DNA of 64,000 nucleotides from contig JAYKGU010000021.1 of assembly GCA_035285585.1 (NCBI GenBank), forward strand, positions 3,283-67,282. Direction: 5' to 3'. A model generated the notes under the pieces. That model ran no database searches and had not been told where the DNA came from. It worked only from the letters and a program-made list of their open reading frames with translations. Of this stretch, positions 6,047-40,442 are shown one piece after another. Positions within the stretch are counted from its first letter, which is position 1; every line of letters begins with the position of its first letter. Source of the DNA: Synechococcales cyanobacterium (GTDB lineage: Bacteria; Cyanobacteriota; Cyanobacteriia; CAKZMO01). The position numbers and the translations under genes were made by a program.

Positions 6047-6523
6047 ATGCTGAGCCAGTTTCAGTTGCTGAGCCAAGAAGCTGAAGGCCGATACGCTACG
6101 GATAATGAGCTGAAGTTTGTTACGGATTACATCAACTCGTTCCCGCTGCGCTTGCAAACTTACCAGAAGGTTCATGCGCTTGAAAGCAAAATTATTCAAG
6201 ACGCCTACGCCAAGATGGAAGCCAACCACCCCAAGCTGCTGCGGGTCGGCAGTCAGGATATGCGTAGTAAATGGAAGCGCGATACGTTACGGGTGCTGCG
6301 CTACTCGGCGATCGCCCTGCTGCTAGACGATCCTGACCTGCTGCAAGAGCGCTTTCTTTTCTGGTTTCAAACCATTATGCGTGCCTTTGGCACCCAGGAA
6401 AGCTGTGAAGTTACTTACTCGCTGATGCAAGAGGTCGTTAAAGACCATCTCAGTCCCATTGAGGCGGCGTTGTTCTGCCCTCTCCTGGAGCTGAACCGGG
6501 TTGCGCTGGGGGTAACGGCCTAG
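6047..6523 (+). CDS. Phycobilisome-protein-family (globin-fold, allophycocyanin-like) protein, apparently non-chromophorylated
   Basis: N-terminal pattern EAEGRYATDNELKFVTDYINSFPLRLQTYQKV parallels ApcA [32 protein letters not shown]; ~158 aa; no Cys at the position equivalent to Cys81. Confidence 0.55.
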   Translation: MLSQFQLLSQEAEGRYATDNELKFVTDYINSFPLRLQTYQKVHALESKIIQDAYAKMEANHPKLLRVGSQDMRSKWKRDTLRVLRYSAIALLLDDPDLLQERFLFWFQTIMRAFGTQESCEVTYSLMQEVVKDHLSPIEAALFCPLLELNRVALGVTA

Positions 6524-6571
6524 GGTTGGCTACGGGTGCTCAAGCCACAGATTACTGGTAACTGCTCAGGC

Positions 6572-6662
6572 TGCCCTCACCCTAAATTCCTCTCCCTAGG
6601 GAGAGGGACTTCAATCCGATTCCCCTTCTCCCTGGGGAGAAGGGGCTAGGGGATGAGGGCAG
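6572..6662. repeat. Nested palindromic element (repeat family B): an outer stem gccctcaccc/ggggatgagggc enclosing two hairpins (cctctccctagggagagg; ccccttctccctggggagaagggg)
   Basis: Perfect palindromes read in the sequence; partial copy at 47753-47800. Confidence 0.65.
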
Positions 6663-7091
6663 TTCAGGCTCCAGGTCAAGCCTGAGTAGTTACAAAATCT
6701 CCTAAGTGGTGGTTTACCTTGCAGCCAGGGGGAAATGACCCTTTCTCCCTGCAGTTAACAAAACTTGAGATGAGCGGGGTTAGATCCAAAAGTCCCAGGG
6801 CATATTGAACTTAACGGCATCTGACCGGCTACATCTGCTATTTGCAGTATCTGGTATTAACAGTCATCGCTGCTGACCTTTTCTGCAATCAGATGGGGCT
6901 GTCTGAACCCCAAAAAGCCTATACCGAGATTTTTTGAACGGCCTGTCTAGTTGAGTTTTAAGTTCTTAATTTAGACTGTCTGACGTTTAATCGGTCAGGC
7001 CTTACCACAGATTGAATAATAATTCAGTGTGAATACAGATTTGCTTCGTATTAATCGCACCCTTACCCGCTAGTGTTGTGTAGATAACATC

Positions 7092-7772
7092 ATGGTCACT
7101 GTAACGAATAACCAGCACCCTGTAAAAGCTAAGCATCCCAAAAAGCACAACCATTACAGCTTTCGGGACTTCTTTCAATTCAATACTCAAGAGGGTACGA
7201 TCACCGATTGGAACGGCAGTACGAACCTCTTGACCAGCGAAGATTTCATCATTGGCCTGATTGAAGGGCTTGAAGAAGAAGTGGGCGACGCCTCAGCGGC
7301 AACGATGTATACCATCGGTAACCACTGGGGCCAGCGCGACGCCTTTTTCTTTGAGAAATGGTTTGCCGAAGAGTTTGACCGGGGGGTTCGTCAGACAAAC
7401 CTGATGTTTCTTCTAGAAACCTGGTGGTGGCCTTTCACGTCCCAGGGCTGGGGGCGCTGGGAAATCGACATGGGCGATCGCAAGCAGGGCTTTATGTTTA
7501 TCAACCTGTTTGACTCGGCGGTGGCACGCACCCTGGGCGACGTGGGCAAGCCTGTTTGTTACCTCTATGCGGGTCTCTTTGCAGGATTTTTCACCGAAAT
7601 GGTCAAGAAAAAGCTGAGCTGCATTGAGATTCAGTGCTACTCCATGGGGGAAACCTACTGCAAGTTTTTGCTGGGCGGCCAGGATCGCATTGATGCGGCG
7701 GGGTTCTGGATGAATGAGGGGGCCACCGCACGGGACATTGAGAAGCGGTTACGCGCTGGAGAAATGAAATGA
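7092..7772 (+). CDS. V4R (4-vinyl reductase) domain protein
   Basis: C-terminal V4R-like signature E..C...G...C.F (IEIQCYSMGETYCKFLLG); paralog of 8685..9341. Confidence 0.5.
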   Translation: MVTVTNNQHPVKAKHPKKHNHYSFRDFFQFNTQEGTITDWNGSTNLLTSEDFIIGLIEGLEEEVGDASAATMYTIGNHWGQRDAFFFEKWFAEEFDRGVRQTNLMFLLETWWWPFTSQGWGRWEIDMGDRKQGFMFINLFDSAVARTLGDVGKPVCYLYAGLFAGFFTEMVKKKLSCIEIQCYSMGETYCKFLLGGQDRIDAAGFWMNEGATARDIEKRLRAGEMK

Positions 7773-8083
7773 GCACGATGACACTTCCTTCAAAGAACGG
7801 CTCAGCCCAGGGCATGACCTCGACCTGGCTGCCGTCGTCGGTGCAGGAGTTTTTCTCAGCAGTGAATTGGGACGACCGCCCCCTGGAACCCCAGGCCCCT
7901 GAGCAGGCCCACCAGGCAACCACAGGAGAACTTGGGCTGGACATGACGGTTACCCAGTTCTTCGAGGCGATCGCCTGGGATGGAGTGCGCGTCATTGCCG
8001 CCTTTACGCCCGTGGAAGAGCCAATGGCCGAAGAATCAACAGTAGATGAAATTACCCTGGATGATTTTTCGGGCCTGTTTTAA
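7769..8083 (+). CDS. Small acidic protein with an internal repeat (VQEFFSAVNWD / VTQFFEAIAWDG), translationally coupled to the upstream V4R gene
   Basis: ATGA start/stop overlap with the 7092..7772 stop; high acidic content; internal duplicated motif. Confidence 0.35.
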   Translation: MSTMTLPSKNGSAQGMTSTWLPSSVQEFFSAVNWDDRPLEPQAPEQAHQATTGELGLDMTVTQFFEAIAWDGVRVIAAFTPVEEPMAEESTVDEITLDDFSGLF

Positions 8084-8145
8084 CACTGAGGTCAACCCAG
8101 TTATATCTACTTTCATGCCACCCTTACCAGCTTGAGGACATTGCC

Positions 8146-8628
8146 ATGCACCCCCAGATCGATGCCATGTTTGATGAGGCGGAAAATCGCTACCTGAAGC
8201 CTGACGAGTTAAACACGCTAAACCAGTACGTTGAATCCCTGCCCGATCGCCTGGAAACCTACCGCTGTCTGCGGGATCAGGAAGTAACCATTATGCAGCG
8301 GGTCGCGGAACAGCTTGAACAGCAATTTCCCAGCGAAAAAATTGAAGTGCTGGAGCGCTGCCTTAAAAATGCGCTGCTGGTGATGCGCTATTCGGCCATG
8401 GGGATGTTGCTCAACGACGAGCTATTCCTCCAAACCCGCCTGATTAGCTGGTTGGAAGATACGGTTAAAGTTTTTAACACCCAGACCCTCGACACCGCTC
8501 TCTATCGGTTGCTCAACCAGCGACTGAGCGAGACCCTAACCGGCCCGCAGTTGCGGCTTATTCAGCCCCACCTGACGCTGGCGGAACGGGCACTCATTCA
8601 GCCTGCCCCGACAGCTCCAGCGCTCTAA
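8146..8628 (+). CDS. Phycobilisome-protein-family (globin-fold) protein, paralog of 6047..6523
   Basis: EAENRYLKPDELNTLNQYVESLPDRLETYRCL matches the same N-terminal pattern; 160 aa. Confidence 0.55.
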   Translation: MHPQIDAMFDEAENRYLKPDELNTLNQYVESLPDRLETYRCLRDQEVTIMQRVAEQLEQQFPSEKIEVLERCLKNALLVMRYSAMGMLLNDELFLQTRLISWLEDTVKVFNTQTLDTALYRLLNQRLSETLTGPQLRLIQPHLTLAERALIQPAPTAPAL

Positions 8629-8684
8629 GCATTGAGTTGTTCTTACTTGAAAGCAAATACCATTTCTAACCCTCGTGTAGTCCT

Positions 8685-9341
8685 ATGATTTCCATTACCG
8701 ATTTGCTGGTTGACAACCACATTCCTAGCAACTATTTCGCGAGCGATGTTTATGTGAAAGGTGACCTGGAGCTGGGTCTATTGGAAAACCGTCGGGGCGA
8801 TCGCCTCCTGGCCCTTCCAGCAACTTTGATTCAAGGCATTTATGCCGGACTGGAAAATGAAACTGGCCAGGCTGCAGGCATGGTGCTGTTTAACTGCGGT
8901 CGCTGGTGGGGGAAAAACTTCTACACCCGCTTCTGTGAAGAGCTGACCGATTATTACAACAAAGCCGTTGCCGACATGTCGATGGTTGAGTTTCTCCAGT
9001 GCCTCCGTCAGTGCTGGGTAACCCACGGCTGGGGCCGCATCGAGCTGGATCAGAGTCACCACCATCGCGGGTTGTTGCTCATCCAGATTTGGAACTCTCC
9101 CTTTGCCAGGGAAGCGCAAAACAGTACCAAGCCAGCCTGTCATCTGGAGGCAGGTGTGCTGAGCACCTTCTTCAGCCAGCTCACCAGCCGTGAACTGCAC
9201 TGCGTTCAAACCACCTGTGAGTCGCTGGGGTCAGACTGCAACCGGTTTATTTTGGGCCTAACCAAGCGGGTGCAGCCTGCTGAAGAGATGGTTGAGCGGG
9301 GTCTGGATCACGATACTATCCTGCAGCAACTGTGTAGTTGA
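8685..9341 (+). CDS. V4R domain protein, paralog of 7092..7772
   Basis: VQTTCESLGSDCNRFILG (E..C...G...C.F); alignable by eye along its length to 7092..7772. Confidence 0.5.
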   Translation: MISITDLLVDNHIPSNYFASDVYVKGDLELGLLENRRGDRLLALPATLIQGIYAGLENETGQAAGMVLFNCGRWWGKNFYTRFCEELTDYYNKAVADMSMVEFLQCLRQCWVTHGWGRIELDQSHHHRGLLLIQIWNSPFAREAQNSTKPACHLEAGVLSTFFSQLTSRELHCVQTTCESLGSDCNRFILGLTKRVQPAEEMVERGLDHDTILQQLCS

Positions 9342-9435
9342 TGTTGTCTGCCACCATCCAACTTTTTTCCAATCCACCCGGAATGCCTTTTGAGAATAAC
9401 GCCCAGGATTTGAGAATTCGTCGTCGCGGGTCGCT

Positions 9436-11508
9436 GTGTTAAGCCAATCTGGAGCATCCCTCAAATCGTCACAGTATCGTCGGCTTGGCCTGGTAGGGCA
9501 GGGACAGTTTGGTCAGGTGTATTGTGCTGTGCATCGCCAAACCGGACGACTAGTTGCCTTGAAAAACCTGGAGAAGGAGCGGTTTCCCACCCGGCAGTTT
9601 TTGCGGGAGTTGCGGTTTCTGCTGAGTTTGCGGCACCCCAACATCGTTACCTGCTACGCGCTGGAGCACACTCGCACCGGTCGATATCTGGTGATGGACT
9701 ACTGCGAGGGCGGCACCTTACGCAGTCTGATGGTTGACGGACGACACCTGACGCTGCGCTACAGCGTCAAGCTGGTGATGGATATTCTCATGGGGCTGGA
9801 ACACGCCCACAAGCAGGGCATTGTCCACTGCGACATCAAGCCTGAGAATATTCTGCTGAGTCTCCGGTCGGACGGTTGGCTGGCAAAAATTTCAGACTTT
9901 GGCATCGCCCGCCTCAATCAGGAATACTCTCGACAACATGCAGGCAATACCGGGTCGCCTGCCTACATGGCCCCAGAACGCTTCTACGGTCAATATTCCC
10001 CCACCGCCGACCTGTACTCGGTCGGTATTTTATTATTTGAGTTGATTGCGGGGCGGCGACCCTTTTCGGGGACGCCCGTGGCCCTGATGTCAGCCCACCT
10101 GAATCAAGCCGTCGAGTTTCCCGAACGAATTCCTGCTACGCTGCGACCGATTATCCAAAAATCCCTCCAGAAACTTTCTGCACGACGCTACCAGTCGGCG
10201 ACGGAGATGCTGGCAGACCTGGGAGCGATCGCCACCACCGCCGGTTGGGATTTTGCTCCTGAGGCGCGATCGCCCGTCACCATGCCTCCTCTGATGGAAC
10301 TGGAGACTCTCGCCCCGGTTTGTCAGCTTACAGGTTGGAAATGCGAACCCCTGCAGTATGCCGCCAACCAGTTGGTGTTTTGCTCTTTACCCGTGCGATC
10401 GCCCTCAGTCTTACCTTTCAACGAAGGACAACACAAACAGGCTGGGCTGCCTCCCCACCTTTTTTACGCTAGTGCCCACCGCGTTGCCGTCCGTCCGTTA
10501 CTACTCTCCCCAACTGCCGAGATGGGGGGAGCGGGCTGCATTGTTGGCAAAAGCTGGCAGATTACCCACCTACCCGAACCCGTTCAGCAACTGCTGGCCA
10601 GCCCAGTGGGATGCTTTGCCCTTACCCGCAATGCGGTCTATCGGCTTGAGCCTCATGGGGATCAGGATGAGCTGGTGCCCTATCTGGTTCACCAGTTGGA
10701 GCAAGACTGCGTCGCCACCATTGATGCCAGGGGCCGCTGGCTGGCCGCTGTGGCGGATCTGCGCAAAATTCGCCCCCAAACGGGATTTAGTACCCTCCAG
10801 TTTTATCCGCTGCTGGCCTCAGGCGGGGGGAAATTGGCCAGCCATCCAATCCGTCTGGCCAATGCAGGAGCTTCCTCAGAGTTACTGCGCATTGTGGCAC
10901 TGGATTCACGACACGTTGCGGTCATTTCAGAGTGCCCACGGCGAAAATCCTACTGCCGGATTCAAGACACCCGTGACAGGTCCCGTCATGTTCCCTGTAG
11001 GTATATGGATCGACCGAATGAAAGCCACGCAGCCAGCGATAGGGAGTACGAGGGGGGCGATCGCTCCCTCTCGCCAGGGGAACTCGGCACCCATATTGAA
11101 GTGGTAACTCGGCGGGGCACACGGCTGGGGGCACTTTACCTACCCATTCTGCTCAAAGCCGCCATCAAAACCGACAAGCCCTACCAGCTTCTGGCCGTCG
11201 ATCGCCAGGATTCCCACTCCATTCTGGTGATTGATCTGAAGCCATTTCGGGTGGCGCGTATCCCGGTCGAGATTGAACCGCACTTCCTGATGACAACTCC
11301 ATGGGGCTACCTGGTAATGGACGAATGGGGCCAGATGCTCATCCTTGACCGCGACGGCTACGGCGTTAATCGGGTGGAGGGGCCGACCGGGCCAACGGCG
11401 ATCGCCCTCATGGATGACCGCCACCTCTGGGTAGCCAGCCAGAATAAAGGGCAGACCTACCTGCACGGGTTTGACCTTAAAGAAATGGGAGTTGACTTGC
11501 TGCTATGA
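9436..11508 (+). CDS. Hanks-type Ser/Thr protein kinase with a ~400-aa uncharacterised C-terminal domain
   Basis: GQGQFGQVY...ALK (ATP site), HCDIKPENILL (catalytic loop), DFGIAR, SPAYMAPE. Confidence 0.85.
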   Translation: MLSQSGASLKSSQYRRLGLVGQGQFGQVYCAVHRQTGRLVALKNLEKERFPTRQFLRELRFLLSLRHPNIVTCYALEHTRTGRYLVMDYCEGGTLRSLMVDGRHLTLRYSVKLVMDILMGLEHAHKQGIVHCDIKPENILLSLRSDGWLAKISDFGIARLNQEYSRQHAGNTGSPAYMAPERFYGQYSPTADLYSVGILLFELIAGRRPFSGTPVALMSAHLNQAVEFPERIPATLRPIIQKSLQKLSARRYQSATEMLADLGAIATTAGWDFAPEARSPVTMPPLMELETLAPVCQLTGWKCEPLQYAANQLVFCSLPVRSPSVLPFNEGQHKQAGLPPHLFYASAHRVAVRPLLLSPTAEMGGAGCIVGKSWQITHLPEPVQQLLASPVGCFALTRNAVYRLEPHGDQDELVPYLVHQLEQDCVATIDARGRWLAAVADLRKIRPQTGFSTLQFYPLLASGGGKLASHPIRLANAGASSELLRIVALDSRHVAVISECPRRKSYCRIQDTRDRSRHVPCRYMDRPNESHAASDREYEGGDRSLSPGELGTHIEVVTRRGTRLGALYLPILLKAAIKTDKPYQLLAVDRQDSHSILVIDLKPFRVARIPVEIEPHFLMTTPWGYLVMDEWGQMLILDRDGYGVNRVEGPTGPTAIALMDDRHLWVASQNKGQTYLHGFDLKEMGVDLLL

Positions 11509-11656
11509 CCCCCAGTGGCTGCAGGATTAACAAATCTTGAGGGGCGGGCACCATCTCTCCCCGAAAGTCTAGAAGCTGCACCACCGCCAGATAGGCAAAG
11601 CTCAGCAGTAGGGCGATCGCCCCAGTAATAATGGCGACAATTTTTGATCGATCCAT
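11477..11656 (-). CDS. Candidate 59-aa single-TM small protein (below the ORF-track cutoff)
   Basis: Translated by hand: MDRSKIVAIITGAIALLLSFAYLAVVQLLDFRGEMVPAPQDLLILQPLGVIAASQLPFL; hydrophobic helix; overlaps the convergent kinase 3' end. Confidence 0.25.
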   Translation of the reverse strand: MDRSKIVAIITGAIALLLSFAYLAVVQLLDFRGEMVPAPQDLLILQPLGVIAASQLPFL

Positions 11657-12753: not shown

Positions 12754-13224
12754 TCAGCTCAGCCGAGCTGTACACTCCAGAATGAGCTTTTGGTTAATTA
12801 AAGCGTAGGGTTGAATCTCCAGAGCGCGACGAAATGCCCGGATAGCGAGCTGATAGTTGCCCAAAGCTGCATAGCACAACCCCATGCCGTGCAGCGCCCC
12901 GAAATGAAACGGGGCCAATTCAATCACCGCCTGACAGTCGGCCAGCGATTTACGATATTGCTCCCGCATGTAGTACAAAACAGCACGGCGGTTCCAGGCT
13001 TCAATAAAATCAGGCTGATCGCGGATGAGATCAGTGAGGAGCGTTTCGGCTTCCAGATACTCCCCAGCTTGCAGCGCGATTTGGCTTTGCTGGAGGATGC
13101 TCAGGCCGTAATCTCCCTTTTGCTGAAACCAGCCCTGCCAGAGCTGGTGAGTTGCTTGTTCTCGAACCGCTTCATCTGGATGCTTCAGCTCTTCAAGTAA
13201 AACCCTCAGGGTGGTTTCATCCAT
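12754..13224 (-). CDS. TPR repeat protein
   Basis: Three or more TPR-like units (AWNRRAVLYYMREQYRKSLADCQAVIELAP...). Confidence 0.6.
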   Translation of the reverse strand: MDETTLRVLLEELKHPDEAVREQATHQLWQGWFQQKGDYGLSILQQSQIALQAGEYLEAETLLTDLIRDQPDFIEAWNRRAVLYYMREQYRKSLADCQAVIELAPFHFGALHGMGLCYAALGNYQLAIRAFRRALEIQPYALINQKLILECTARLS

Positions 13225-22483: not shown

Positions 22484-24952
22484 TTGAGCACAAGTCATTC
22501 AGAGCCGCTTGCTTTTTACCGAAGGCTAGCGACGCAGGCCATGCCCGTGACCAGCCAGGATATTATTTTATTGCTGGCTGACCTCTCGCGGATGATGACC
22601 GACCTGCAGCGCGTGACAGAAAACTTGCAAAATAAGCGAAATGAGCTATCTCAACACTGCCAGCTTCTCTCTAAAAGTCACCGATCTTATCAAATGCTGT
22701 TTGAGCAGGCCCCTGTTGGTTATATCGTGACAAACGCCATTGGCGTGATCGAACAGGTAAATGACGTTGGGGTGCGGCTGCTGCAGAGAACCAAGGACAC
22801 TCTGATTGGTCAACCCCTGCAGCGTCTTGTTTCAGAGCGGTCGTCCATTGCGCTGGCTAATTTTCTGGCCCAGTGTCTGTCCCAATCAGACGACATCGCC
22901 CGACAAATGGAGGTCTGTCTGCCTGGATCCGAAGGCAGGGAAGCCCGGGTCAACCTTTTTGTGAGTCCCATTTATCGGCAATCCCGTGAAATCTCCGGGT
23001 TTCGCTGGATTCTCCACGATATCACTGAGCGGTGGCAGGCGATCGCCTTTCTCCAGCAGCGCATCGACCAGGAAAGGCAGTTGCGGAAAATTGCCCACTC
23101 TATTCGTCGTTCGTTGAATCCGCAAGAAATTCTCCAGAGCACCGTTACCGAACTACAGCCGCTTCTACAGGCGGGTCAGGTCTTTGCCTACCGGCTGGCG
23201 TCCGCTGCTGAACCAACCCAGATGCAGGATCCCGGAGACTCCGCCACCCGCGGGCAGGCCGGGGGCAACCTGCTAAAGGCGGAAGCCACTGATGCAAGCT
23301 GGAGTGGGAAGGGACTCTTTCCTGTGGGCGATCGCCTGCTGCGAGAGCAAATTCAGCAGTTGATGCACCACCAGTGCCTGGCCATTGACGATTTGAACCA
23401 CGCCTGCCTGTTGCCGGATCTGCGAGCCGCCTGGCAGCAGCAGCAGGTAGAGGCCGTCTTGGTAGTGCCCCTGGTGTGGAGTGAGGAACCCATTGGCCTG
23501 CTGGGTATTTTGCAGCAATCTCCCTGCTACTGGCACCCGGCTGACATTGAGCTAATTTGTCAGCTTGCTGATGAAGTCAGCATCGCCCTGCACCACGCGG
23601 ATTTGTATCACCAGATTCAGCAACTGAACACCGACCTGGAGGCCGAGGTGGAGCGGCGCACCGTACAGGTGCGGACCGCGGCGGAGTTTGAGTCGATGCT
23701 GAAGCGTATTACCGACAAGGTGCGCGACTCGCTGGATGAGAGCCAGATTTTACAAACGGCGATGCGGGAGCTGGCCCAGGTTTTAGAGCTGGGGGGCTGT
23801 AATACGGCGCTTTATGACCTGGAGGAACAGACTTCCACCATTTCCCACGAATACACCAACTTTATTCCGGCGTATCGGGGGCGGGTGGCGCAGATGAATG
23901 ACTTCCCCGAAATTTATAACCAGCTCCGCCAGGGCCAGTACTTCCAGTTTTGCTCCCTGATTCCTAACCCGGCCCGAGGGCAGGTGGCGCTGCTGGCCTG
24001 TCCTATTTTTGTCGATTCTGAATCGTCGGCAGAAGGAACCCAGCAGGTGCTGGGGGATTTATGGCTAATTAACCACAAGGACCATATCTTTAACGAGTTC
24101 GAGATTCGCCTGGTGCAGCAGGTGGCTAACCAGTGTGCGATCGCCATTCGTCAGGCCCGCCTCTACCAGGCCGCCCAGGGACAGGTACACGAGCTGGAGC
24201 GGCTCAACCGGCTCAAGGATGAGTTTTTAAGCACCGTATCCCATGAGCTGCGCACGCCCATTTCCAACGTCAAAATGGCGATTCACATGCTAAAACGGGC
24301 CAGCACGGAAGAAAAGCGGCAGCGCTATTTCGAGATCCTAGAAGCCGAGTGCCAGCGGGAAGCTGATTTGATCAACGACCTGCTGGATCTGCAAAAGCTT
24401 GAGGTGTCGTCCTATCCCATCACCGTGAATACCATTGCCCTGCAGGACTGGATTCCCAGTGTGGTTGAACCGTTCCAGTCGCGCATTTCTACCTATCAGC
24501 AGCACCTCAACGTTATTTGTCCCCAATCGCTGCCGCTGCTTTGCACCGATTTCGACATTTTGCAGCGGATTCTCGCCGAACTGCTCAACAACGCCTGTAA
24601 GTATACGCCTTCGGATCGCACCATTGAGTTAAGCGTGTATAGCAATGAGGTAGTGGAAGATCCCCTGGGGCGATCGCTCCCCCCTGGCATTACCGTAATC
24701 GCGCGTAACCAGGCCGAAATTCCCGCCTCTGAACTTCCCCATATTTTTGAAAAATTCTATCGGGTGCCCAACGCCGATCCGTGGAAACAGGGCGGAACAG
24801 GGCTGGGGCTGGCCCTGGTGCAAAAGCTGGTAGAACAGTTGGGGGGATCGATTTACGTCGAAAGCAAAGATGGCTGGACGACGTTTACGGTCACCGTTCC
24901 CAACCTGCCCAAGCAAGACCCCCGCCTGACGATAGAATCACTGAGTCAGTAG
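22484..24952 (+). CDS. Multi-sensor (PAS/GAF) signal-transduction histidine kinase, TTG start
   Basis: H-box LSTVSHELRTPIS; N/G boxes ELLNNACKYT, GGTGLGLALV; upstream PAS and GAF-like regions; GGAGG RBS. Confidence 0.85.
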   Translation: MSTSHSEPLAFYRRLATQAMPVTSQDIILLLADLSRMMTDLQRVTENLQNKRNELSQHCQLLSKSHRSYQMLFEQAPVGYIVTNAIGVIEQVNDVGVRLLQRTKDTLIGQPLQRLVSERSSIALANFLAQCLSQSDDIARQMEVCLPGSEGREARVNLFVSPIYRQSREISGFRWILHDITERWQAIAFLQQRIDQERQLRKIAHSIRRSLNPQEILQSTVTELQPLLQAGQVFAYRLASAAEPTQMQDPGDSATRGQAGGNLLKAEATDASWSGKGLFPVGDRLLREQIQQLMHHQCLAIDDLNHACLLPDLRAAWQQQQVEAVLVVPLVWSEEPIGLLGILQQSPCYWHPADIELICQLADEVSIALHHADLYHQIQQLNTDLEAEVERRTVQVRTAAEFESMLKRITDKVRDSLDESQILQTAMRELAQVLELGGCNTALYDLEEQTSTISHEYTNFIPAYRGRVAQMNDFPEIYNQLRQGQYFQFCSLIPNPARGQVALLACPIFVDSESSAEGTQQVLGDLWLINHKDHIFNEFEIRLVQQVANQCAIAIRQARLYQAAQGQVHELERLNRLKDEFLSTVSHELRTPISNVKMAIHMLKRASTEEKRQRYFEILEAECQREADLINDLLDLQKLEVSSYPITVNTIALQDWIPSVVEPFQSRISTYQQHLNVICPQSLPLLCTDFDILQRILAELLNNACKYTPSDRTIELSVYSNEVVEDPLGRSLPPGITVIARNQAEIPASELPHIFEKFYRVPNADPWKQGGTGLGLALVQKLVEQLGGSIYVESKDGWTTFTVTVPNLPKQDPRLTIESLSQ

Positions 24953-29018: not shown

Positions 29019-30989
29019 ATGTTAGGACATGTTGTCGGCGGACGGTACCAAATTCTCCAGCACCTGGGTGGTGGTGGGTTTGGACGGACCTATCTGGCAG
29101 AAGACAAACACCTGCCGGGGCAGCCTCAGTGCGTCGTTAAGCAACTCAAACCTCGTAACACCCACCCGCAGGCTCTGGAAGTGGCGCGGCGATTATTTGA
29201 GCGGGAGGCAGAGGTGCTGTATCTGCTGGGCAACCATCCCCAAATTCCCCGTCTGTTCGCCCACTTCGAAGAAAATCAGGAGTTTTATCTCGTCCAGGAG
29301 TTCATTGACGGCACTGTCCTCAGCCGCGAGATTCGTCGGGGGCAGACTCTCAGCGAAATGGACACAATCGGGCTGCTAAAAGAAATTCTCACCATTCTCC
29401 AATTCGTCCACGGGCAACACGTCATTCATCGCGACATCAAACCCTCCAACCTGATGCGGCGACACCAGGACCAGGCCATCGTGCTCATCGATTTTGGTGG
29501 CGTTAAGCAAATTGGGTCTGAATCCTCCGATGCGGAGCAGAGCAGCATTACGATCGCCATCGGCTCCTCTGGATACATGCCCAACGAGCAGCTAGCAGGC
29601 AAGCCCCGCTACAGCAGCGACATCTACTCAGTGGGCATGATTGGCATTAAGGCATTGACGGGCTGCAGCCCGGCGCAATTGCCCGAAGATTTGCGGTCGG
29701 GGGAAATTCTCTGGCGCGATCGCGCCCCCCACACTTCCGACGAGTTTGCCCACATTCTCGAGACTATGACCCGTTATGACTTCCGCCATCGCTATGAAAC
29801 CGTCGAAGCGGTGATTGCTGCCCTCGACAACCTGACGGCCCAGTCTGATACGGCGACCATGACCTACCAGAAGCCCACAGGCAAGCCTTCTCGTCCACCT
29901 GAGCAGCAGGATCCCGTCGAGGGTCAAGCCTCCCATCTGCCCGATGCCGTCGATCGCGCCACCACGTCCTCCTCCACCGAATTATCGGCCCACGTCGGGC
30001 TATCGACCCTGCTGTTAAACACAGGTCAGTCAGGCATTGATGCCACTGCAGCTAGTTCGGGAATTAGGGATGGCTATTTGGTCTGGTATGAGCGGGGAGA
30101 TGAGTTATTCCAGCAGCAGCGGTTTCAGCGGGCAATTCCCTGTTATGAAAAGGTGCTGCAGGCAGTACCCGACGACTATTTTGCCTGGTTTAAGCTGGCG
30201 ATGGCCCTGGAAAATGTGCAGCGTCACGTGGATGCGATCGCCTGCTACGACCGGGTCGTCCAGCTTCAGCCTGAGGATTATCTCGCCTGGTTTAAGCGGG
30301 GCAAGGCGCTGGAGCATCTCCAGCGGTACGAAGAGTCGCTGGCATCTTATGACCGCGTGGTGCAGATTCAACCGCGCAACTACTGGGTTTGGCACGAGCG
30401 GGGCATGGTGTTAGAAGCGCTGAAGCGCAACGAGGATGCCATCAGCGCCTTTGACCGGGCGGTGCAGCTCAAGCCCGATTTCCAGCTTGCCATTGAACAC
30501 CGGAAGCGGCTTTTGCGACAGTCGAAGCAAGTTAGCCGCCTGTACGATTTGCATCATTACGATGAGGCGATCGCCTCCTGCAACCAGGCCATCCGTGACC
30601 AGCCCGACAATGTGATGGCGTGGCTTATGCGGGGAATGGCGTTTGAAAACGCAAATCAGTATGCAGAAGCCATTCGTTCTTATCAACAGGTCATCCGGCT
30701 GCAGCGGGACGACCATCTCGCCTGGTTTAAGTGTGGCACTTTGTTGGAAAAACTAGAGCGCTATCCCGACGCCGCTAAAGCTTATCAAGAAGTGACCCGG
30801 CTCCAACCCGATAACTACTGGGCCTGGTATGACTGGGGACGGGTATCCGAAACGCTTCACGATTACGAGCAGGCGCTAACGGCCTACGATCGCGCCGCCC
30901 ACCTCAACCCAAATTTAGGCGAGGCGATCGCCGGACGCAAGCGAACCATGCAGCAGCTTAAGCTAATCTGCTCCGTCTCGTCTGAATAG
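29019..30989 (+). CDS. Ser/Thr protein kinase with C-terminal TPR repeats
   Basis: HRDIKPSNLM, DFGGVK, kinase subdomains; six or more TPR units at the C-terminus. Confidence 0.85.
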   Translation: MLGHVVGGRYQILQHLGGGGFGRTYLAEDKHLPGQPQCVVKQLKPRNTHPQALEVARRLFEREAEVLYLLGNHPQIPRLFAHFEENQEFYLVQEFIDGTVLSREIRRGQTLSEMDTIGLLKEILTILQFVHGQHVIHRDIKPSNLMRRHQDQAIVLIDFGGVKQIGSESSDAEQSSITIAIGSSGYMPNEQLAGKPRYSSDIYSVGMIGIKALTGCSPAQLPEDLRSGEILWRDRAPHTSDEFAHILETMTRYDFRHRYETVEAVIAALDNLTAQSDTATMTYQKPTGKPSRPPEQQDPVEGQASHLPDAVDRATTSSSTELSAHVGLSTLLLNTGQSGIDATAASSGIRDGYLVWYERGDELFQQQRFQRAIPCYEKVLQAVPDDYFAWFKLAMALENVQRHVDAIACYDRVVQLQPEDYLAWFKRGKALEHLQRYEESLASYDRVVQIQPRNYWVWHERGMVLEALKRNEDAISAFDRAVQLKPDFQLAIEHRKRLLRQSKQVSRLYDLHHYDEAIASCNQAIRDQPDNVMAWLMRGMAFENANQYAEAIRSYQQVIRLQRDDHLAWFKCGTLLEKLERYPDAAKAYQEVTRLQPDNYWAWYDWGRVSETLHDYEQALTAYDRAAHLNPNLGEAIAGRKRTMQQLKLICSVSSE

Positions 30990-31005: not shown

Positions 31006-31860
31006 CTAGTTAGCTTCTCCCTGGGACTGGGATTGCTGCGACTCAGGCAAACCCTCTGGCTCTAGCTCCAGTTCACGGGGTTCGGGCGTGGCAAGCTCCC
31101 GAAGTTCGGGAAGTTCTAGCAGCTCTTTCTCTGGGAGAGCCTGCTTTTCCTTCAGATCAAGCGGCAGCGATAGCGGTTTAGGCGTCTCGATCCAGCAGCT
31201 GGCGACGGGCAGGGTGTGCTCCAGGTCTTCGAGGGGACGGGGGATGACCATGACAGAATGCAGTTCACCAATGCGCTCGGCTTCGTGCATCCCCACTTCG
31301 ATGGCGATCGTGACATCGGCCACATTGCCGCGAATAATGGCCGTACATAGCCCCGATCCAATCATCTCGTAGGAGGCGAGCTGCACCTCAGCAGACTTGA
31401 GCATGGCATCGGCGGCCCCCACCATCGCCGGAAATCCACGGGTTTCCAGGAGGCCAACCGCCTGGTTGCTGAGGCGACTGTAGCCGTTGATTTCAGAAAT
31501 TTGTGCCAGACGGCTGCCGATGGGCAACACTGCATCCAGATTGGGCAGCGGACGGGGGATGACTGACTTAGACACGAGCTGGCCAAACTGCTGAGCTGTT
31601 TCTGCGCCGCTCTCTACGGCAATTCGCACGTCTGCCAGTCGTCCGCGCACCACCGCAGTGCAGTAGCCGCTACCGATTTTTTCGTATCCCAGGAGGGTGA
31701 CCCCAGCGGATTTGAGCATCATGTCGGCGGTGCCAATGATGGCCGGGAAACTGCGAGTGGAGACCAGCCCCAGCGCCGTGTGGCTGAAGTCGGGCGATCG
31801 CCCCGAACGCTGGCCCTGAACCATACCTCGTGCTTGCATGTTCACCGTTGTCTTCTCCAC
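31006..31860 (-). CDS. ccmO: Carboxysome shell protein CcmO (tandem BMC domains)
   Basis: Two BMC domains (ALGLVSTRSFPAIIGTADMMLKSAGV... and AVGLLETRGFPAMVGAADAMLKSAEV...). Confidence 0.8.
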   Translation of the reverse strand: MEKTTVNMQARGMVQGQRSGRSPDFSHTALGLVSTRSFPAIIGTADMMLKSAGVTLLGYEKIGSGYCTAVVRGRLADVRIAVESGAETAQQFGQLVSKSVIPRPLPNLDAVLPIGSRLAQISEINGYSRLSNQAVGLLETRGFPAMVGAADAMLKSAEVQLASYEMIGSGLCTAIIRGNVADVTIAIEVGMHEAERIGELHSVMVIPRPLEDLEHTLPVASCWIETPKPLSLPLDLKEKQALPEKELLELPELRELATPEPRELELEPEGLPESQQSQSQGEAN

Positions 31861-31877
31861 TTACAAAACCCGCTGCA

Positions 31878-32528
31878 TCAGTCTTCAACCTGGCTGTCAG
31901 GATTCTCATCAACCGCTGGGGCTGGGGACTCAGGCCCCTGCTGCCCTGGGCCACCCCGGTGAAACATCATCTGCATGAGCCGCTCCACCGATGTTCGCCC
32001 GTAGACATGGGCAAATTTAACCGTTGATGAGGAAACGAACGTCGCTGAAGGGGCACTGGGGTGCTGGCCTGCCTCTGCACAATCCGGATCGCCAGGGGGC
32101 GGAGCAGGCTGTTTTCCTGAGGTCTGCTCCGCAGGCGGGGCAGCAGCAGGGGAAGGCGGCGGCGGTGATCCACCATTTCCTGGGTCTTCCAGCAAACTCC
32201 CTGGGGCAACTACCTGCTGGGGGGCAACCTTTACCTCGAAGAGAATCGATGTTGCCGCACCAATGCAGGCTCCTTGGCCAATCAGGCCACACCCCATAAT
32301 CAGCACCCGCGAACCAATCGTGACATTATCCTGCACTTCCAGGATACCCTGGTGGGCGTGGAGAATGGAGCCTGCCCCAATGGAGACCCCCGCAGCGATC
32401 CGTAGCTGACTGTCAGGATCTGCCTGGAGGAGCACCCCTGACGCAATGACCGCTGACGGATGAATCGTAACATTTCCACCAATGAAGAAATGTGCTCCAT
32501 TCACTGATTCCGGCAACAGGCCATGCAT
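31878..32528 (-). CDS. ccmN: Carboxysome assembly protein CcmN
   Basis: N-terminal left-handed beta-helix hexapeptide repeats; Pro-rich linker; C-terminal encapsulation-peptide-like helix VYGRTSVERLMQMMF. Confidence 0.7.
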   Translation of the reverse strand: MHGLLPESVNGAHFFIGGNVTIHPSAVIASGVLLQADPDSQLRIAAGVSIGAGSILHAHQGILEVQDNVTIGSRVLIMGCGLIGQGACIGAATSILFEVKVAPQQVVAPGSLLEDPGNGGSPPPPSPAAAPPAEQTSGKQPAPPPGDPDCAEAGQHPSAPSATFVSSSTVKFAHVYGRTSVERLMQMMFHRGGPGQQGPESPAPAVDENPDSQVED

Positions 32529-32574
32529 TCAAAAATCCGCCTCCGGACTGATCGCTTTAGGTGACACTGAAGGG

Positions 32575-34662
32575 CTAAGGTCGCTGCACAATTAGCTCGA
32601 GTACCCGCCGCTTGGCATTGGGATCAATTCCAATGATGCGGACGTACTCTCCTACATGCTCGCTCAGGCAGGCCTCAATGGCAGCCACCGCCTCCGCTGG
32701 ACGACTAGACTGGATGGACGCACAGTTTTTCCACGAGCTGGTCTGGAAACGACGGGCATCGGCATACTCAATACCAATGCGGTAGCCCTGGGAAAGAAGC
32801 TGGTTCACCTGGCCCAGGATCTCCGGGGTCAGGGTCTGACTTTGAACCGCTGGGTTGCTGGTAAACCGGGTCGCCTCACGCGGAGAGGCTGCACTGCCTG
32901 CCGGATGAGCTGCTGGCGTGAAGGGACGCTGGACATCATCTGGTCGCTGGATGATCATTTCCAGCACCCGTCGCTTGGCGTTGGCATCAATGCCGATGAG
33001 CCGGACATATTCTCCAGCATGTTCAGCCAGGCAGGCTTCCAGGGCCGCAACCACCTCCCGGGGGCGGGTCGACTCGATGGGGGCACAACTCTTCCAGGAG
33101 CTGGTTTGGAAGCGACGGGCGTCGGCGTGCTCAGTACCGATGCGGTAGCCCTGGGAGAGAAGCTGGCTCACCTGATCCACCACTTCGGGCGGAAGAGCCT
33201 GGCTTTGAACGGATGACCTGTAGCCATTGGCCTGGGTGGCACGGGGGGGGGCCGCACTGCCCGCCGGGTGAGCGGCAGGGGTGAAGGATGGGGGGCGATC
33301 GCCCGGACGTTGAATAATAACTTCTAGTACACGCCGCTTGGCCTGGGTGTCAACCCCAACCAGCTTCACATACTCGCCGGGATGTTCGGCTAAACAGGCT
33401 TCCAGAGCGGCAAAGACATCTGCTTCCCTCGGCGACTCCACCATCGGGCAGGTTTTCCAGGAGCTGGTCTGGAAGCGACGGGCATCGGCATGCTCCATGC
33501 TGACGCGATGTCCCTGGGCCAAGAGCTGGCGCACCTGCTGGGCAAGGTCGCCACTTAAGGAGCCTGACGTTGCGGCTGGTGTCGGGCGGCTGCTACTGTA
33601 GCTGCTGCGACCATTTCCATTGGAGGACGGAGCCGACGAAGGCACATATCCGTGACCATTGCTGGAGGGATTGAGCTGCACAGCCGCATCTCCGGGACGC
33701 TGGATAATTTTCTCGAGCACCCGCCGCTTAGAGGCCGTATCGACGCCCAGCAGCCGGACGTAGTCACCCTCGTGCTCAGCCAGGCAGTTGGCGAGGGCGG
33801 CCAATACATCGCCTGGGCGACTAGAGGCAATGGGCGGACAGCTCTGCCACGAACTGGTTTGAAAGCGACGTCGATCAGCATACTCGGCACTCACACGGTA
33901 GCCCTGGGCCAGCAGTTGCTGCACATCAGAGGCGATCGCCCCGCTAATATCGGTTTGCCCCGGCGAGCTGGTGGAAGACATTGGTGAAGAATAGGTCGGT
34001 TTCATGGTGTTTGAGGTATTAGACTGGTAGCTCCGTTCTAGTTCGCTGCGAATGGCAGCAACGCAGGCGATATCTTCAGAGCAGCGATAACCCGATCGCA
34101 GTGCATCATTAACATCGACCACGTGGTTGGCAAACTGGACATCAAGGGATTGAACATCGGGTAGCTGGTCGGCCTGCTGCTGGGTGGTAATAATCGCGCC
34201 AGAGGGAACGTATTTTCCTGGTGGCACTTCAACGTCTTGAATAAGGGCATGCATCATAACAACGCAGCCCTTGCCAAGGCGAGCATTGAAAACGGTTGAG
34301 CGAAAACCAATGAAGCAGTTATCCCCCACGTAGGCTGGCCCGTGGATCAGGCACATGTGGGTGATTGAGGTGTTGCGGCCAATCCAAACAGAGTATTGCT
34401 GCTGATCGTCGCCAACTACGCGCCCCTGCTCCAAACCGTGGATGACCACCCCGTCTTGAACGTTGCTATTCTCGCCAATGTGGAAAGGATGCCCCTCATC
34501 GGCTCGAATGGATGTTCCGGGAGCAACCAGAACATCAGGGCCAATGTGAACATCCCCAATAATATTCGAGAAAGAGTGAACGTAGGCGGTTTCGTGGATC
34601 GTGGGCTGCGCCAAACTTTTCGACCAGGGAGTCGGTGGGGCAGCGGAGGTATGAGCAGCCAT
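32575..34662 (-). CDS. ccmM: Carboxysome scaffold protein CcmM (gamma-CA domain plus four SSU-like repeats)
   Basis: Gamma-carbonic-anhydrase hexapeptide domain at the N-terminus; four repeats of LAQGYR...[13 protein letters not shown] (RbcS-like modules). Confidence 0.9.
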
Positions 34663-36095: not shown

Positions 36096-36900
36096 CTCTA
36101 AATCTCCTAACTAAATCCAAGCCCCTAAAAAACACAAGAATTCCGCATTTTCTGATTCAAATACTGGGTAATGAATGACTCAGAAAAAGCACCTTAAAAT
36201 TCCAGCTTAAGCATACAGGGCCGCTCTTAGCTTTGGCAATATAAACCAAAATGATTATCTTAAATAAGATATATAATTCTAGCTTATAAAAGCCTTTGCC
36301 AACAGATCCGCTGCTGCTCACGCGACGCCCTATTCCCTTCTTTGCAGTTTTTTGGGGGTGGGGCACTGCGGGACAAGGGCGGAGTAAGCTGATAGAACAG
36401 AGCCATCACCAGCAACCCACTCTTCATTGTCATTTAAGATTGAAGTGAAAGACTTGATCGAATTAAGTCTCAAGGTATCTATATCAATCCTCAAATTTGG
36501 CAAGAATTATTCAAGGGGAGTTAGATTTCTTAACAATCTTTCCTCCCTATGGCACGGGTTTGGCAGGGAAGCGGTATGGGTAGCCTCAATCCTGCTACTC
36601 TAAATAAGTAAGCAGGAGATGAAGCATTTGTTACATTTATGCCCTGGCTACAGGGTAGTCCAAGTCTGTGGCTCTTTGAGGGCACTGTGCTTTGGGACTG
36701 CTGACAGCCAATGGTTCCCAGGTCGATTGCTAAAGCGCTATTGCATTTAATGTGGAGCAGTCTGGCTGATAAAGGGCCTGGTATGAGTAGCAGTGCATCT
36801 CCCTGGCGTCGGTGACGTCACCTACTGGCATGAGCGTGCGGTTCTGGCCTTTTTGATAGGCATCTTTTTTGGTAGACATCTTCAGAATGGGACGGTTGCA
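36096..36900. promoter_or_regulatory. ~800-bp divergent intergenic control region between the ccmK operon and the ndhF-ndhD-cup operon
   Basis: AT-rich stretch 36160-36300 (TATAAT-like hexamers); no long ORF; sits between two divergently oriented CCM operons. Confidence 0.5.
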
Positions 36901-38769
36901 ATGGAGCAGTTTTTACTGCAAACAAGTTGGTTGATTCCCTTCTATGGCCTGCTGGGAGCATTGTTAACCCTGCCGTGGTCTTCTGGGGTAATTGCCCGGA
37001 CGGGGCCTCGACCAGCGGCCTACCTCAATCTTTTGATGACCTCCCTGGCGGTTCTGCATGGCTCTATTGCGTTTTACCTGATCTGGCGATCGCCCCCCCA
37101 AACCTTCCTGCTGAACTGGCTCCAGGTAGCTGACCTCAAGCTAACACTGGCGGTGGAAATCTCCCCGGTCAACCTGGGTGCAATGGAGCTGGTCGCTGGC
37201 ATTAGCCTGTTGGCCCAGTTTTATGCCCTCGGCTACATGGAGAAGGACTGGTCGCTTGCCCGTTTCTTTGGCATGATGGGCTTCTTTGAAGCAGCCCTGA
37301 GCGGCATTGCCATTAGCGACTCGCTGCTGCTCAGCTATGGGCTGCTGGAGCTGTTAACCCTGTCTACCTACCTGCTGGTGGGCTTCTGGTATGCTCAACC
37401 TCTGGTGGTAACGGCGGCACGGGATGCGTTCCTCACCAAACGAGTGGGCGATATTATTTTGCTGATGGGCATTGTAGCCCTATCCAGCTATGGGGCAGGG
37501 CTATCCTTCTCTGAGCTGCAGTCCTGGGCCGAAACGTCGCCGCTGCCGCCGCTGGTCGCTGCCCTGCTGGGGTTGTCCTTAATTGCCGGACCGACCGGTA
37601 AGTGTGCTCAATTTCCCCTCAATCTCTGGCTAGACGAGGCCATGGAAGGCCCCAATCCCGCTGGAATTATGCGGAATTCCGTTGTGGTTTCTGCTGGGGC
37701 CTATGTGCTCATCAAACTGCAGCCGGTATTCAGCCTGTCCCCTGTCTCTGCCGATGCCCTGATCTTGATTGGAGCGGTAACAAGTGTAGGGGCGTCATTG
37801 GTGGCGATCGCCCAAATTGACATCAAGCGAGCATTATCTCACTCAACAAGCGCCTGGTTGGGGCTGGTGTTTATTGCCGTAGGGCTGGAGCAGGTTGACA
37901 TCGCCCTCATGCTGCTGATGGTTCATGCCCTGGCCAAGTCCCTGATGTTTATGAGCATCGGTTCAGTTATTTCTACCACCAGCAACCAGAACATTACCGA
38001 AATGGGCGGGCTTTGGTCGCGGATGCCTGCCACCACCAGTGCCTTCGCCGTCGGCGGAGCCAGCCTGATCGGCCTCCTGCCCCTGGGGGCCTTTTGGACG
38101 TTTCGGCGCTGGACAGGGGGGCAGTGGGACTTGCCCGGATGGCTGCTGCTCATCCTGTTGACCGTTAATTTACTGACCGCCATCAACTTTACGCGGGTCT
38201 TTCGCCTGGTTTTCTGTGGTGCGCCCCAGATGAAAACCCGTCGTACCCCTGAGGTGGGATGGCCCATGGCGCTGCCCATGGTAACCATGACCGCCATCGT
38301 GCTGCTGTCGCCGCTGATTCCTATGAACTGGTCGCTCTGGCTCAGTTCGATTCAGCCGCTAGGAAACACCGATCTGCCGATTGTAAGACTGGCATTGCCA
38401 GCACTGGTGCTGTCTGGGCTGGTTGGGGTCGTCATTGGGGCCACCATTGAGCTGCGTCGTGCCTGGTCGCGCCCTGCCCAGGTTTCCATGCGATTCACCC
38501 AGGATCTGTTAGCCTATGACTTTTACATCGATCGCCTTTACAACATTACCGTTGTCTGGCTGGTTGGCCAGGCTTCGAAGCTAACCGCCTGGTTTGATCG
38601 CTATGTGGTTGATGGAGCGGTCAACCTGCTGGGGTTTGCGGCAGTACTTAGCGGTCAGGCGTTGCGGTACAGCGCGTCGGGGCAGTCTCAGTTCTACATC
38701 CTGACGATTCTGATTGGCATGGTGGGGGTATTTATGCTGGCCCTGGGCTGGCTGGGTTGGCTGTTTTAG
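36901..38769 (+). CDS. ndhF: NDH-1 CO2-uptake subunit NdhF3/NdhF4 (track ORF starts at 36793)
   Basis: MEQFLLQTSWLIPFYGLLGA start; NuoL/NdhF proton-pumping membrane subunit; ~620 aa. Confidence 0.85.
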   Translation: MEQFLLQTSWLIPFYGLLGALLTLPWSSGVIARTGPRPAAYLNLLMTSLAVLHGSIAFYLIWRSPPQTFLLNWLQVADLKLTLAVEISPVNLGAMELVAGISLLAQFYALGYMEKDWSLARFFGMMGFFEAALSGIAISDSLLLSYGLLELLTLSTYLLVGFWYAQPLVVTAARDAFLTKRVGDIILLMGIVALSSYGAGLSFSELQSWAETSPLPPLVAALLGLSLIAGPTGKCAQFPLNLWLDEAMEGPNPAGIMRNSVVVSAGAYVLIKLQPVFSLSPVSADALILIGAVTSVGASLVAIAQIDIKRALSHSTSAWLGLVFIAVGLEQVDIALMLLMVHALAKSLMFMSIGSVISTTSNQNITEMGGLWSRMPATTSAFAVGGASLIGLLPLGAFWTFRRWTGGQWDLPGWLLLILLTVNLLTAINFTRVFRLVFCGAPQMKTRRTPEVGWPMALPMVTMTAIVLLSPLIPMNWSLWLSSIQPLGNTDLPIVRLALPALVLSGLVGVVIGATIELRRAWSRPAQVSMRFTQDLLAYDFYIDRLYNITVVWLVGQASKLTAWFDRYVVDGAVNLLGFAAVLSGQALRYSASGQSQFYILTILIGMVGVFMLALGWLGWLF

Positions 38770-38864
38770 TTGGGCGTTTGATCGGGTTTATTGAAAGAAT
38801 TGATCCATCTCTAGGTCGAGAGTGCATCGGTGTTAATTATTAGAAAAGTGGAGGGACTGGAAAG

Positions 38865-40433: not shown

Positions 40434-40442
40434 TCCTCTGCT

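Follow-up and report, generated by a model that had tools for sequence, protein, structure and literature searches.

The slr0144-slr0152 genes of Synechocystis are known as the "photosystem II assembly protein (Pap) operon", the last gene of which is spkG (slr0152) (PMC11863333); citing papers credit the description to Wegener et al. 2008 (PMC11863333, PMC9145668, PMC4853703), and by that attribution the gene arrangement has been on record since 2008. The operon is co-transcribed in Synechocystis, and a conserved "cluster e" consisting of a hypothetical gene, 4VRa, an apcB-like gene, 4VRb, fed, an apcA-like gene, a further fed and a TPR gene has been catalogued, together with a "cluster e′" which adds a threonine protein kinase (Cassier-Chauvat and Chauvat, 2014; PMC4284462). 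Cyanobacterial clusters combining a BBAG globin, two V4R proteins (clades A and B) and an iron-sulfur (Fe-S) protein, with slr0144-slr0149 of Synechocystis 6803 as an example, were traced by Rockwell, Martin and Lagarias (2023) to clusters that in heterotrophic bacteria accompany pre-PcyA bilin reductases; the non-cyanobacterial BBAGs bind bilins, and the cyanobacterial versions of the cluster were termed "quite variable" (PMC10151467). Mutants of slr0144-slr0152 are impaired in photosystem II function (PMC9145668), the operon is down-regulated in iron limitation and oxidative stress (PMC4853703), and loss of spkG changes the expression of salt-induced genes and, as summarised in a review, abolishes phosphorylation of ferredoxin 5 (Fd5 or Fed5, Slr0148) (PMC11863333). 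Here we analyzed six genes at positions 6047-11508 of a 64-kb stretch from a Synechococcales cyanobacterium (contig JAYKGU010000021.1, positions 3,283 to 67,282; hereafter the window, whose own positions serve as coordinates throughout), which very likely represent a reduced local version of this cluster that is devoid of the Fe-S and TPR genes.

Relationship to the slr0144-slr0152 cluster

All six open reading frames (ORFs) claimed in the original prediction, which was made from the sequence of the window, were present at exactly the coordinates given and on the + strand, and their typing as two phycobilisome-family globins, two V4R proteins and a Hanks-type kinase was borne out by Pfam. In order of position these are globin_b (6047-6523, 158 aa; PF00502 Phycobilisome, E=1.6e-22), V4R_a (7092-7772, 226 aa; PF02830 V4R, E=4.7e-21), a small acidic protein coupled to V4R_a (7769-8083, 104 aa), globin_a (8146-8628, 160 aa; PF00502, E=1.8e-11), V4R_b (8685-9341, 218 aa; PF02830, E=7.1e-16) and an SpkG-type Hanks Ser/Thr kinase (9436-11508, 690 aa; Pkinase at residues 14-259, E=5.8e-54). 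They occupy the slr0149, slr0144, slr0145, slr0146, slr0147 and slr0152 positions, respectively, with the slr numbers and the V4R clades A and B being assigned by position and not by a joint tree.

The correspondence is carried by a bridging locus (L081) in a Xenococcaceae metagenome-assembled genome (MAG), which was reached via the kinase C-terminal domain. This locus encodes, in order, a V4R protein of 239 aa, a small ORF of 121 aa, a Phycobilisome protein of 162 aa, a second V4R protein of 227 aa, a Fer2 protein of 160 aa, a second Phycobilisome protein of 155 aa, a 339-aa protein with transmembrane, coiled-coil and TPR segments, and finally a Pkinase protein of 620 aa, an order which equals that published for Synechocystis (compared with PMC4284462). 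BLASTP comparisons gave each window protein a unique best counterpart in L081 and in two further loci, L082 and L083. V4R_a matched the first V4R protein of the three loci at 71-86% identity, vs. ~25% to its paralogue, and V4R_b matched the second at 62-67%, vs. ~25-27%; globin_a matched the globin encoded between the V4R genes of the three loci at 47-54% (25% to the paralogue), while the counterpart of globin_b was the globin that follows Fer2 in L081, at 44% (28% to the paralogue). The acidic protein was 34-43% identical to the small ORF of the three loci, which likewise overlaps its V4R gene, and the kinase aligned over its full length with their terminal kinases at 40-45% identity (41% and E=7.5e-142 for L081, with the C-terminal propeller described below included).

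The original prediction had held the arrangement to be undescribed, which is wrong because it is already catalogued in the literature: the genes match those of slr0144-slr0152 in Synechocystis, an operon that ends in spkG (PMC11863333, PMC9145668, PMC4853703, PMC4284462, PMC10151467). The locus therefore adds nothing categorically new and belongs to a known, mechanistically open operon; we term it a reduced version and not a complete cluster because Fed5 is absent from it.

Several points weigh against equating the two. The orthology with slr0144-slr0152 rests on gene order, domain content and the bridging locus and not on direct alignment with the Synechocystis proteins BAA18544-BAA18552. When metagenome contigs were scanned with a published spkG reverse transcription PCR primer, the 104 matches were chance matches, none accompanied by the second primer or by a cluster gene, and of the 33 proteins retrieved with the C-terminus of the Xenococcaceae kinase as query none could be recognised as coming from Synechocystis, most being without a name and the named ones either generic or Pleurocapsa. 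The other homologue searches likewise yielded no named Synechocystis protein. Furthermore, a Fed5-type Fer2 gene, which would encode an adrenodoxin-like 2Fe-2S protein, was not found in any frame of the 64 kb, either by tblastn or with a profile built from 23 cluster Fer2 proteins (E<=10), and neither the gene nor a remnant of it was detected in the 420-bp upstream region or in the 568-bp gap between globin_b and V4R_a. The protein that is absent is both part of the published definition of the cluster and the only reported SpkG-dependent phosphoprotein. Its absence from the window reflects recent loss or relocation, since the closest relative (L002) carries Fer2. Fed4, a plant-type ferredoxin, and a Slr0151-type TPR protein were also not found, either between V4R_b and the kinase or elsewhere in the 64 kb; both are neighbors specific to Synechocystis and variable according to the literature. 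A TPR protein encoded at 12754-13224 on the - strand (156 aa) was considered as a Slr0151 orthologue and rejected, its resemblance to the 339-aa protein of L081 (25% over 100 aa) being generic TPR similarity and the gene being a non-conserved neighbor on the opposite strand.

Gene order among relatives and origin of the paralogues

For comparison, 80 loci from reference genomes were fetched via alignment to V4R_a, to which at least 584 genomes matched, and were mapped by tblastn and ORF clustering, with only those loci having enough flank entering the counts given here. A V4R_a relative was encoded in at least 584 cyanobacterial species genomes, and the nearest relatives of the locus were Elainellaceae and Leptolyngbyaceae genomes. 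The small acidic ORF directly followed V4R_a in every case (81/81 loci), and the succession of small ORF, globin_a and V4R_b after V4R_a was kept in 72 of 74 loci. The kinase, which in the window is separated from V4R_b by 94 nt, was directly downstream of V4R_b in 64 of the 65 loci (a count that corrects for one split ORF and two artefacts of ORF-start calling), the exceptional locus having its kinase ~6 kb off on the opposite strand; adjacency of the kinase to the cluster was also seen in L081-L083. The linkage of the kinase to the V4R and globin genes, as originally predicted, was thus confirmed. No more than 29 of 72 loci had globin_b directly upstream of V4R_a, and 23 of the same 72 had a 160-aa Fer2 gene upstream of globin_b. 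The minimal conserved unit is V4R_a, the acidic protein, globin_a, V4R_b and the kinase; the locus can do without the Fe-S protein, the second globin and the TPR protein.

Additional neighbors recurred among the relatives. In the 23 Fer2-bearing loci, Fer2 was usually preceded by a ~291-aa protein without a Pfam match, a divergent LysR gene and, in many cases, a further kinase encoded on the other strand (e.g., L069:7623-8498, L083:6193-7077, and L068:6867-7889), an extended arrangement that goes unmentioned in the cluster literature cited here. Directly downstream of the kinase, ~35 of the 80 relatives encoded an NnrU-family membrane protein and a thioredoxin (e.g., L083:11874-13094, L045:15112-15825, and L041:13943-14305), neither of which is in the window, and L082 had an ArsC/glutaredoxin-like gene in their place. 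The recurrence of NnrU and thioredoxin neighbors hints at a redox connection of the cluster.

The order of the genes in the window, superficially globin-V4R-(small)-globin-V4R, had led to their description as a duplicated cassette, i.e., a recent tandem duplication of a two-gene unit in which the two pairs would be redundant copies. This description is misleading. Within the window the globins are just 30% and the V4R proteins just 25% identical to each other, and because of this divergence we regard both pairs as ancient paralogues and not as recent cassette copies. In distant orders, moreover, every paralogue is matched by a separate one-to-one orthologue (44-86% identity); 43 of 72 relatives do not have the first globin at this position, and in Synechocystis-type loci it follows the Fe-S gene; and published trees put the V4R duplication that gave rise to clades A and B at the base of the thylakoid-bearing cyanobacteria or earlier (PMC10151467). 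A recent duplication is refuted by the combination of divergence and orthology pattern, and we assign it next to no probability.

Globin_b is separated from the remaining cluster by a 568-bp gap holding a dispersed palindromic element. This compound palindrome of ~135 nt (6558-6693; RNA fold of -85.8 kcal/mol, z = -7.8) has a partial second copy in the window at 47754-47796, and similar palindromes occur at unrelated positions in other loci (L052:16528-16623, L062:7870-7967, and L004:85-164), such that it looks like a dispersed repeat of the palindromic type or of the kind of a miniature inverted-repeat transposable element (MITE). A cluster-specific regulatory RNA in the gap was considered and rejected, the Rfam matches being sub-threshold only and the hairpin being that of the dispersed repeat. 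Scans for promoters and terminators returned site numbers no higher than in shuffled sequence.

Features of the encoded proteins

Neither globin resembles a light-harvesting subunit in its scores, with the best match to any NCBIfam apc, cpc or cpe model reaching 43.9 bits vs. a cut-off of 228 (apcB). In globin_b, HMMER aligned the residues W-K-R-D onto C-L-R-D of ApcF, and 29 of 32 globin_b orthologues carry K-W-K-x-D. Globin_a of the window reads C-L-K-N, with Asn in place of Asp and a Cys that its orthologues do not share consistently: among 78 of them the Cys82-equivalent is S, C, A, or T, followed by [LI]-K-N. The Arg-Asp pair is kept only in globin_b. As judged from these alignments, the canonical thioether Cys (CxRD) is absent in the globin_b lineage and unconserved in the globin_a lineage, and therefore any bilin binding in this clade cannot use the canonical Cys; globin_b, which keeps the Arg-Asp pair, could at most bind a bilin non-covalently. 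As a conserved function of the cluster globins in this clade, covalent bilin attachment is accordingly ruled out. The proposal that the locus encodes a bilin or tetrapyrrole sensor is weakened by this loss, with the assignment of its globins and V4R proteins to their families remaining in place.

The PF00502 matches, and the fact that the best sequence matches in the PDB are ApcF, ApcB, and CpcB, would also fit ordinary phycobilisome or allophycocyanin-type accessory subunits that function in light harvesting or energy transfer and happen to lie next to unrelated genes. This is highly improbable given scores that fall short of all NCBIfam equivalog cut-offs for apc, cpc, and cpe subunits by a factor of 5-10, the missing or unconserved chromophore Cys, the strict co-linearity with the V4R genes, and a published phylogeny which sets BBAGs apart from light-harvesting phycobiliproteins (PMC10151467). 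It is further opposed by the genomic context, which, as had been predicted, is not that of a phycobilisome: a Pfam sweep covering the cluster, its flanking genes and all window ORFs of >=180 aa found no apc or cpc, linker, pcyA, heme oxygenase, or Fer2 genes.

Within the cluster, V4R_a shows the strongest conservation, being 70-88% identical across cyanobacterial genera and orders, with 145 of 226 columns conserved at >=95%. Among solved structures, the one closest to it in sequence is that of the PoxR phenol-sensor domain (PDB 5fru), to which phmmer aligned residues 40-193 with E=0.0017. An AlphaFold2 (AF2) model submitted to Foldseek returned sensor domains of PoxR, MopR, and DmpR as all of its top 17 matches, over ~200 columns, followed by Bet3/TRAPP and the V4R protein MJ1460; since the model is of low confidence (pLDDT 57), a point that counts against the assignment, it was used only to corroborate the sequence-level match to PoxR. 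The V4R fold that had been proposed for 7092-7772 was supported in both searches. The predicted E..C...G...C.F signature is exact in V4R_a (E179, C182, G186, C190, F192), and C156, E179, C182, and C190 have the same 23/3/8 spacing as the Zn ligands C149, E172, C175, and C183 in XylR numbering, corresponding to a Cys3Glu motif of the pattern Cys-x22-Glu-x2-Cys-x7-Cys. None of the four Cys, an additional C177 among them, varies across 81 orthologues, and E179 is invariant in a 17-sequence alignment. V4R_a consequently looks like a full-length PoxR/MopR-like, putatively Zn-stabilised domain of the small-ligand sensor type. In V4R_b the signature holds only in part, with Gln at the Glu position and the last Cys shifted by one and variable (present in 53 of 74), while C152, C173, and C178 are conserved; by sequence V4R_b and V4R_a are ancient paralogues, of which V4R_b has a changed metal-site motif.

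The acidic protein at 7769-8083 overlaps the V4R_a stop codon with its start (ATGA), and its description as a translationally coupled acidic repeat protein was borne out. It has 17 acidic (D/E) vs. 3 basic (K/R) residues, two FFxxxxW[DEQ][GD] repeats, and a conserved C-terminal LDDFSxLF, and gave no match in Pfam or NCBIfam.

The kinase has intact GQGQFG, VALK, DFG, and APE motifs in its catalytic domain (nt 9475-10212, + strand) and a catalytic loop of HCD, as do 71 of 89 cluster kinases, and is therefore a non-RD kinase. Its last ~430 aa gave no match in Pfam or NCBIfam and had been thought to be without a recognisable fold; the AF2 and Foldseek results replace this with a predicted β-propeller. 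The C-terminal 416 residues, modeled with a 28-sequence alignment, gave an all-β structure of ~29 strands (pLDDT 81.6, pTM 0.80), which Foldseek matched with probability 1.0 to 7-bladed WD40 propellers (e.g., eIF3i, ATG16L1, and WDR5; target TM-scores of 0.6-0.7 at ~10% identity). On the basis of this model the kinase C-terminus (nt ~10258-11505, + strand) is a predicted β-propeller of ~7 blades. An exhaustive HMMER search among 1.84 billion sequences found 207 representatives at E<=1e-3, whose full-length matches are proteins of ~560-700 aa with the domain at the C-terminus, so that by sequence the propeller is apparently a small family private to SpkG-type kinases. The window kinase is 100% identical to P0121, a protein of a "Synechococcales bacterium" MAG, and its 690 aa, vs. 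~600-660 aa in most homologues, are explained largely by a window-specific disordered insert (residues ~500-551, nt ~10933-11088, + strand). This low-confidence, charged insert of ~50 residues (…RKSYCRIQDTRDRSRHVPCRYMDRPNESHAASDREYEGGDRS…) interrupts one propeller blade.

Convergent with the kinase gene and overlapping 32 nt of its 3' end is a 59-aa ORF on the - strand (11477-11656; MDRSKIVAIITGAIALLLSFAYLAVVQLLDFRGEM...) with an N-terminal transmembrane helix and no Pfam match. Immediately downstream of the kinase, L006, L012, L022, L024, and L050 share approximately 116 nt at ~80% conservation, the differences showing wobble at the third codon position, and the ORF is probably an unannotated gene for a small membrane protein. 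A second Hanks kinase in the window (29019-30989, + strand; Pkinase E=6.7e-36, TPR_2 E=4.6e-51) carries a long C-terminal TPR array and is unrelated to the SpkG-type kinase outside the catalytic domain.

The remaining genes of the window detected in the Pfam sweep are ordinary cyanobacterial ones, including ZipN/ARC6, ccmM/N/O, ndhF3/D3/cupA, GAF-PAS sensors, and glycosyltransferases. The segments 31006-34662 (- strand) and 36793-41579 (+ strand) hold carboxysome genes adjoining NDH-1 CO2-uptake genes (NdhF3/NdhD3-like and ChpXY/CupA); the carboxysome set comprises a double-BMC CcmO-like protein, a hexapeptide CcmN-like protein, and a CcmM-like protein with four RbcS-like repeats, and constitutes an ordinary cyanobacterial context for the carbon-concentrating mechanism. 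The window also encodes a PAS-GAF histidine kinase (22484-24952, + strand) and a GAF-PAS adenylate/guanylate cyclase (41775-44510, + strand).

Proposed mechanism and comparison with known systems

We propose a mechanism in which the two V4R paralogues would be PoxR/MopR-like hydrophobic-ligand domains, V4R_a with a predicted structural Zn site, and would assemble in the cytosol with the two globins, which do not harvest light and of which globin_b would bind a bilin non-covalently at most. This complex may bind or handle a hydrophobic, probably tetrapyrrole-derived, molecule and, in line with the work on Synechocystis, may be linked to photosystem assembly and repair. The kinase propeller probably serves as a docking platform for cluster-encoded partners, which the kinase would phosphorylate. 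The kinase would thereby regulate the complex and not merely relay a signal from it, since Fd5 phosphorylation in Synechocystis depends on SpkG. We hold regulation of the complex by the kinase to be a tentative reading, one that could well prove incorrect.

The original prediction had the opposite direction of information flow, with a sensor feeding the kinase. On this reading the V4R and globin proteins would sense a bilin, a tetrapyrrole, or another hydrophobic ligand and pass their state via the propeller to the kinase, which would then phosphorylate targets outside the cluster, the whole forming a dedicated Ser/Thr signaling module gated by a ligand. The tight adjacency of the kinase in the Leptolyngbya-like loci (64/65) and in L081-L083 is compatible with this, as are the resemblance of V4R_a to a bona fide effector-sensing domain in PoxR, MopR, and DmpR, the retention of the kinase at a locus from which the Synechocystis Fe-S substrate is absent, and the effect of spkG deletion on salt-induced gene expression (PMC11863333). 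For a non-RD kinase, furthermore, phosphorylation of the activation loop is an unlikely means of control, and some other input is needed. The part of this proposal that called the system undescribed is refuted by the literature, neither globin has a conserved bilin-attachment Cys, kinase homologues exist unlinked to the cluster, and the only reported phosphorylation dependence concerns Fd5, a protein from within the cluster (PMC11863333). As this last result, taken from a review summary, is the sole experimental datum and places the kinase upstream of a cluster protein, the predicted direction is weakened, and we consider it unlikely.

A related possibility is that the five-gene core, which persists free of the Fe-S, ferredoxin, and TPR genes and hardly varies among Leptolyngbya-like cyanobacteria, is a Ser/Thr kinase module that acts autonomously and is gated by a ligand. 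Sensing of a hydrophobic, tetrapyrrole, or redox metabolite would fall to a PoxR-like V4R heterodimer containing Zn and to a globin that has no chromophore or is loaded non-covalently, and this sensing complex would control the non-RD Hanks kinase through its dedicated β-propeller, for which the C-terminal LDDFSxLF of the acidic protein might be the docking element. Although we view this as speculative and improbable, if true it would constitute a bacterial signaling architecture without characterised precedent and would provide a concrete mechanism for the long-unexplained Pap operon.

Regulation of the complex by the kinase, for its part, must be set against several considerations. The association of the cluster with photosystem I vs. 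photosystem II is disputed (PMC4853703), the kinase activity of SpkG is unverified in vitro (PMC11863333), and no ligand has been demonstrated for any BBAG of cyanobacteria or for the V4R proteins of the cluster. Two Pleurocapsa-type genomes encode homologues of the propeller kinase (L188:2493-4247 and L189:3752-5515) that adjoin no V4R or globin gene, with none found in the ~13-15 kb fetched for each locus, and therefore the coupling is not obligatory; these two kinases share a different conserved context of HIT and GDPD genes, a 226-aa protein encoded on the other strand, and a ~665-aa protein.

The cluster is widespread and V4R_a is unusually conserved, yet 18 years after its description the biochemical function of slr0144-slr0152 is unexplained. 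The additions made here are modest, namely the minimal unit of five genes, the predicted propeller, the conservation of the Zn-site motif in V4R_a, and the loss of CxRD, yet this comparative picture gives specialists sharper hypotheses to test.

Among known systems, V4R_a is closest to the A domains of PoxR, MopR, DmpR, and XylR (PDB 5fru, 5kbe, and 6iy8), which bind small hydrophobic aromatics, dimerise, and form the effector-sensing part of NtrC-family phenol and xylene regulators. V4R_a aligns with them over ~155-200 residues in sequence and in fold and keeps four putative Zn ligands at a spacing identical to that of the ligands proven in PoxR, MopR, and DmpR. It differs in that its identity to them is only 14-18% and that it has the extra invariant Cys177, and both V4R_a and V4R_b (226 and 218 aa) stand alone, without the AAA+ σ54-activator or DNA-binding output domains of the regulators.

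A C-terminal propeller is not foreign to bacterial Hanks-type kinases. The actinobacterial kinase PknD ends in a C-terminal β-propeller. The cyanobacterial Hanks kinases include a WD40(7) class, and SpkG of Synechocystis itself, like the window kinase, has an additional C-terminal region without an annotated domain ("cbSTKI-other") (PMC2176072). Like the WD40 and other β-propeller kinases, the window kinase would thus consist of an N-terminal kinase domain followed by a C-terminal propeller of ~7 blades that presumably binds a protein or ligand. It differs from them in that its propeller has no detectable WD40 sequence repeat, and therefore Pfam is silent on it, that its family is very small and confined to SpkG-type kinases, and that its catalytic loop is non-RD (HCD).

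With the Synechocystis operon the window shares 4VRa, the small hypothetical gene, the apcB-like gene, 4VRb, and the Ser/Thr kinase as last gene, in the same relative order and on one strand, as well as a second apc-like globin. The window differs in that Fed5 (slr0148), Fed4 (slr0150), and the Slr0151-type TPR gene do not lie between V4R_b and the kinase and in that the second globin is upstream of V4R_a instead of following the Fe-S gene.

The BBAG/V4R/Fe-S clusters (PMC10151467), lastly, share with the locus phycobiliprotein-superfamily globins other than light-harvesting subunits and two deeply diverged V4R proteins per cluster, and their cyanobacterial versions, like the window, contain neither a ferredoxin-dependent bilin reductase (FDBR) nor a heme oxygenase. 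Unlike these clusters, the locus is without the Fe-S protein, and whereas in BBAG-1, BBAG-2, and BBAG-3, the characterised members, bilins are attached covalently via CxRD or RGMC, the window globins have WKRD and CLKN. The kinase, moreover, is treated as a variable neighbor in that work (PMC10151467), whereas in the clade sampled here it is almost always adjacent.

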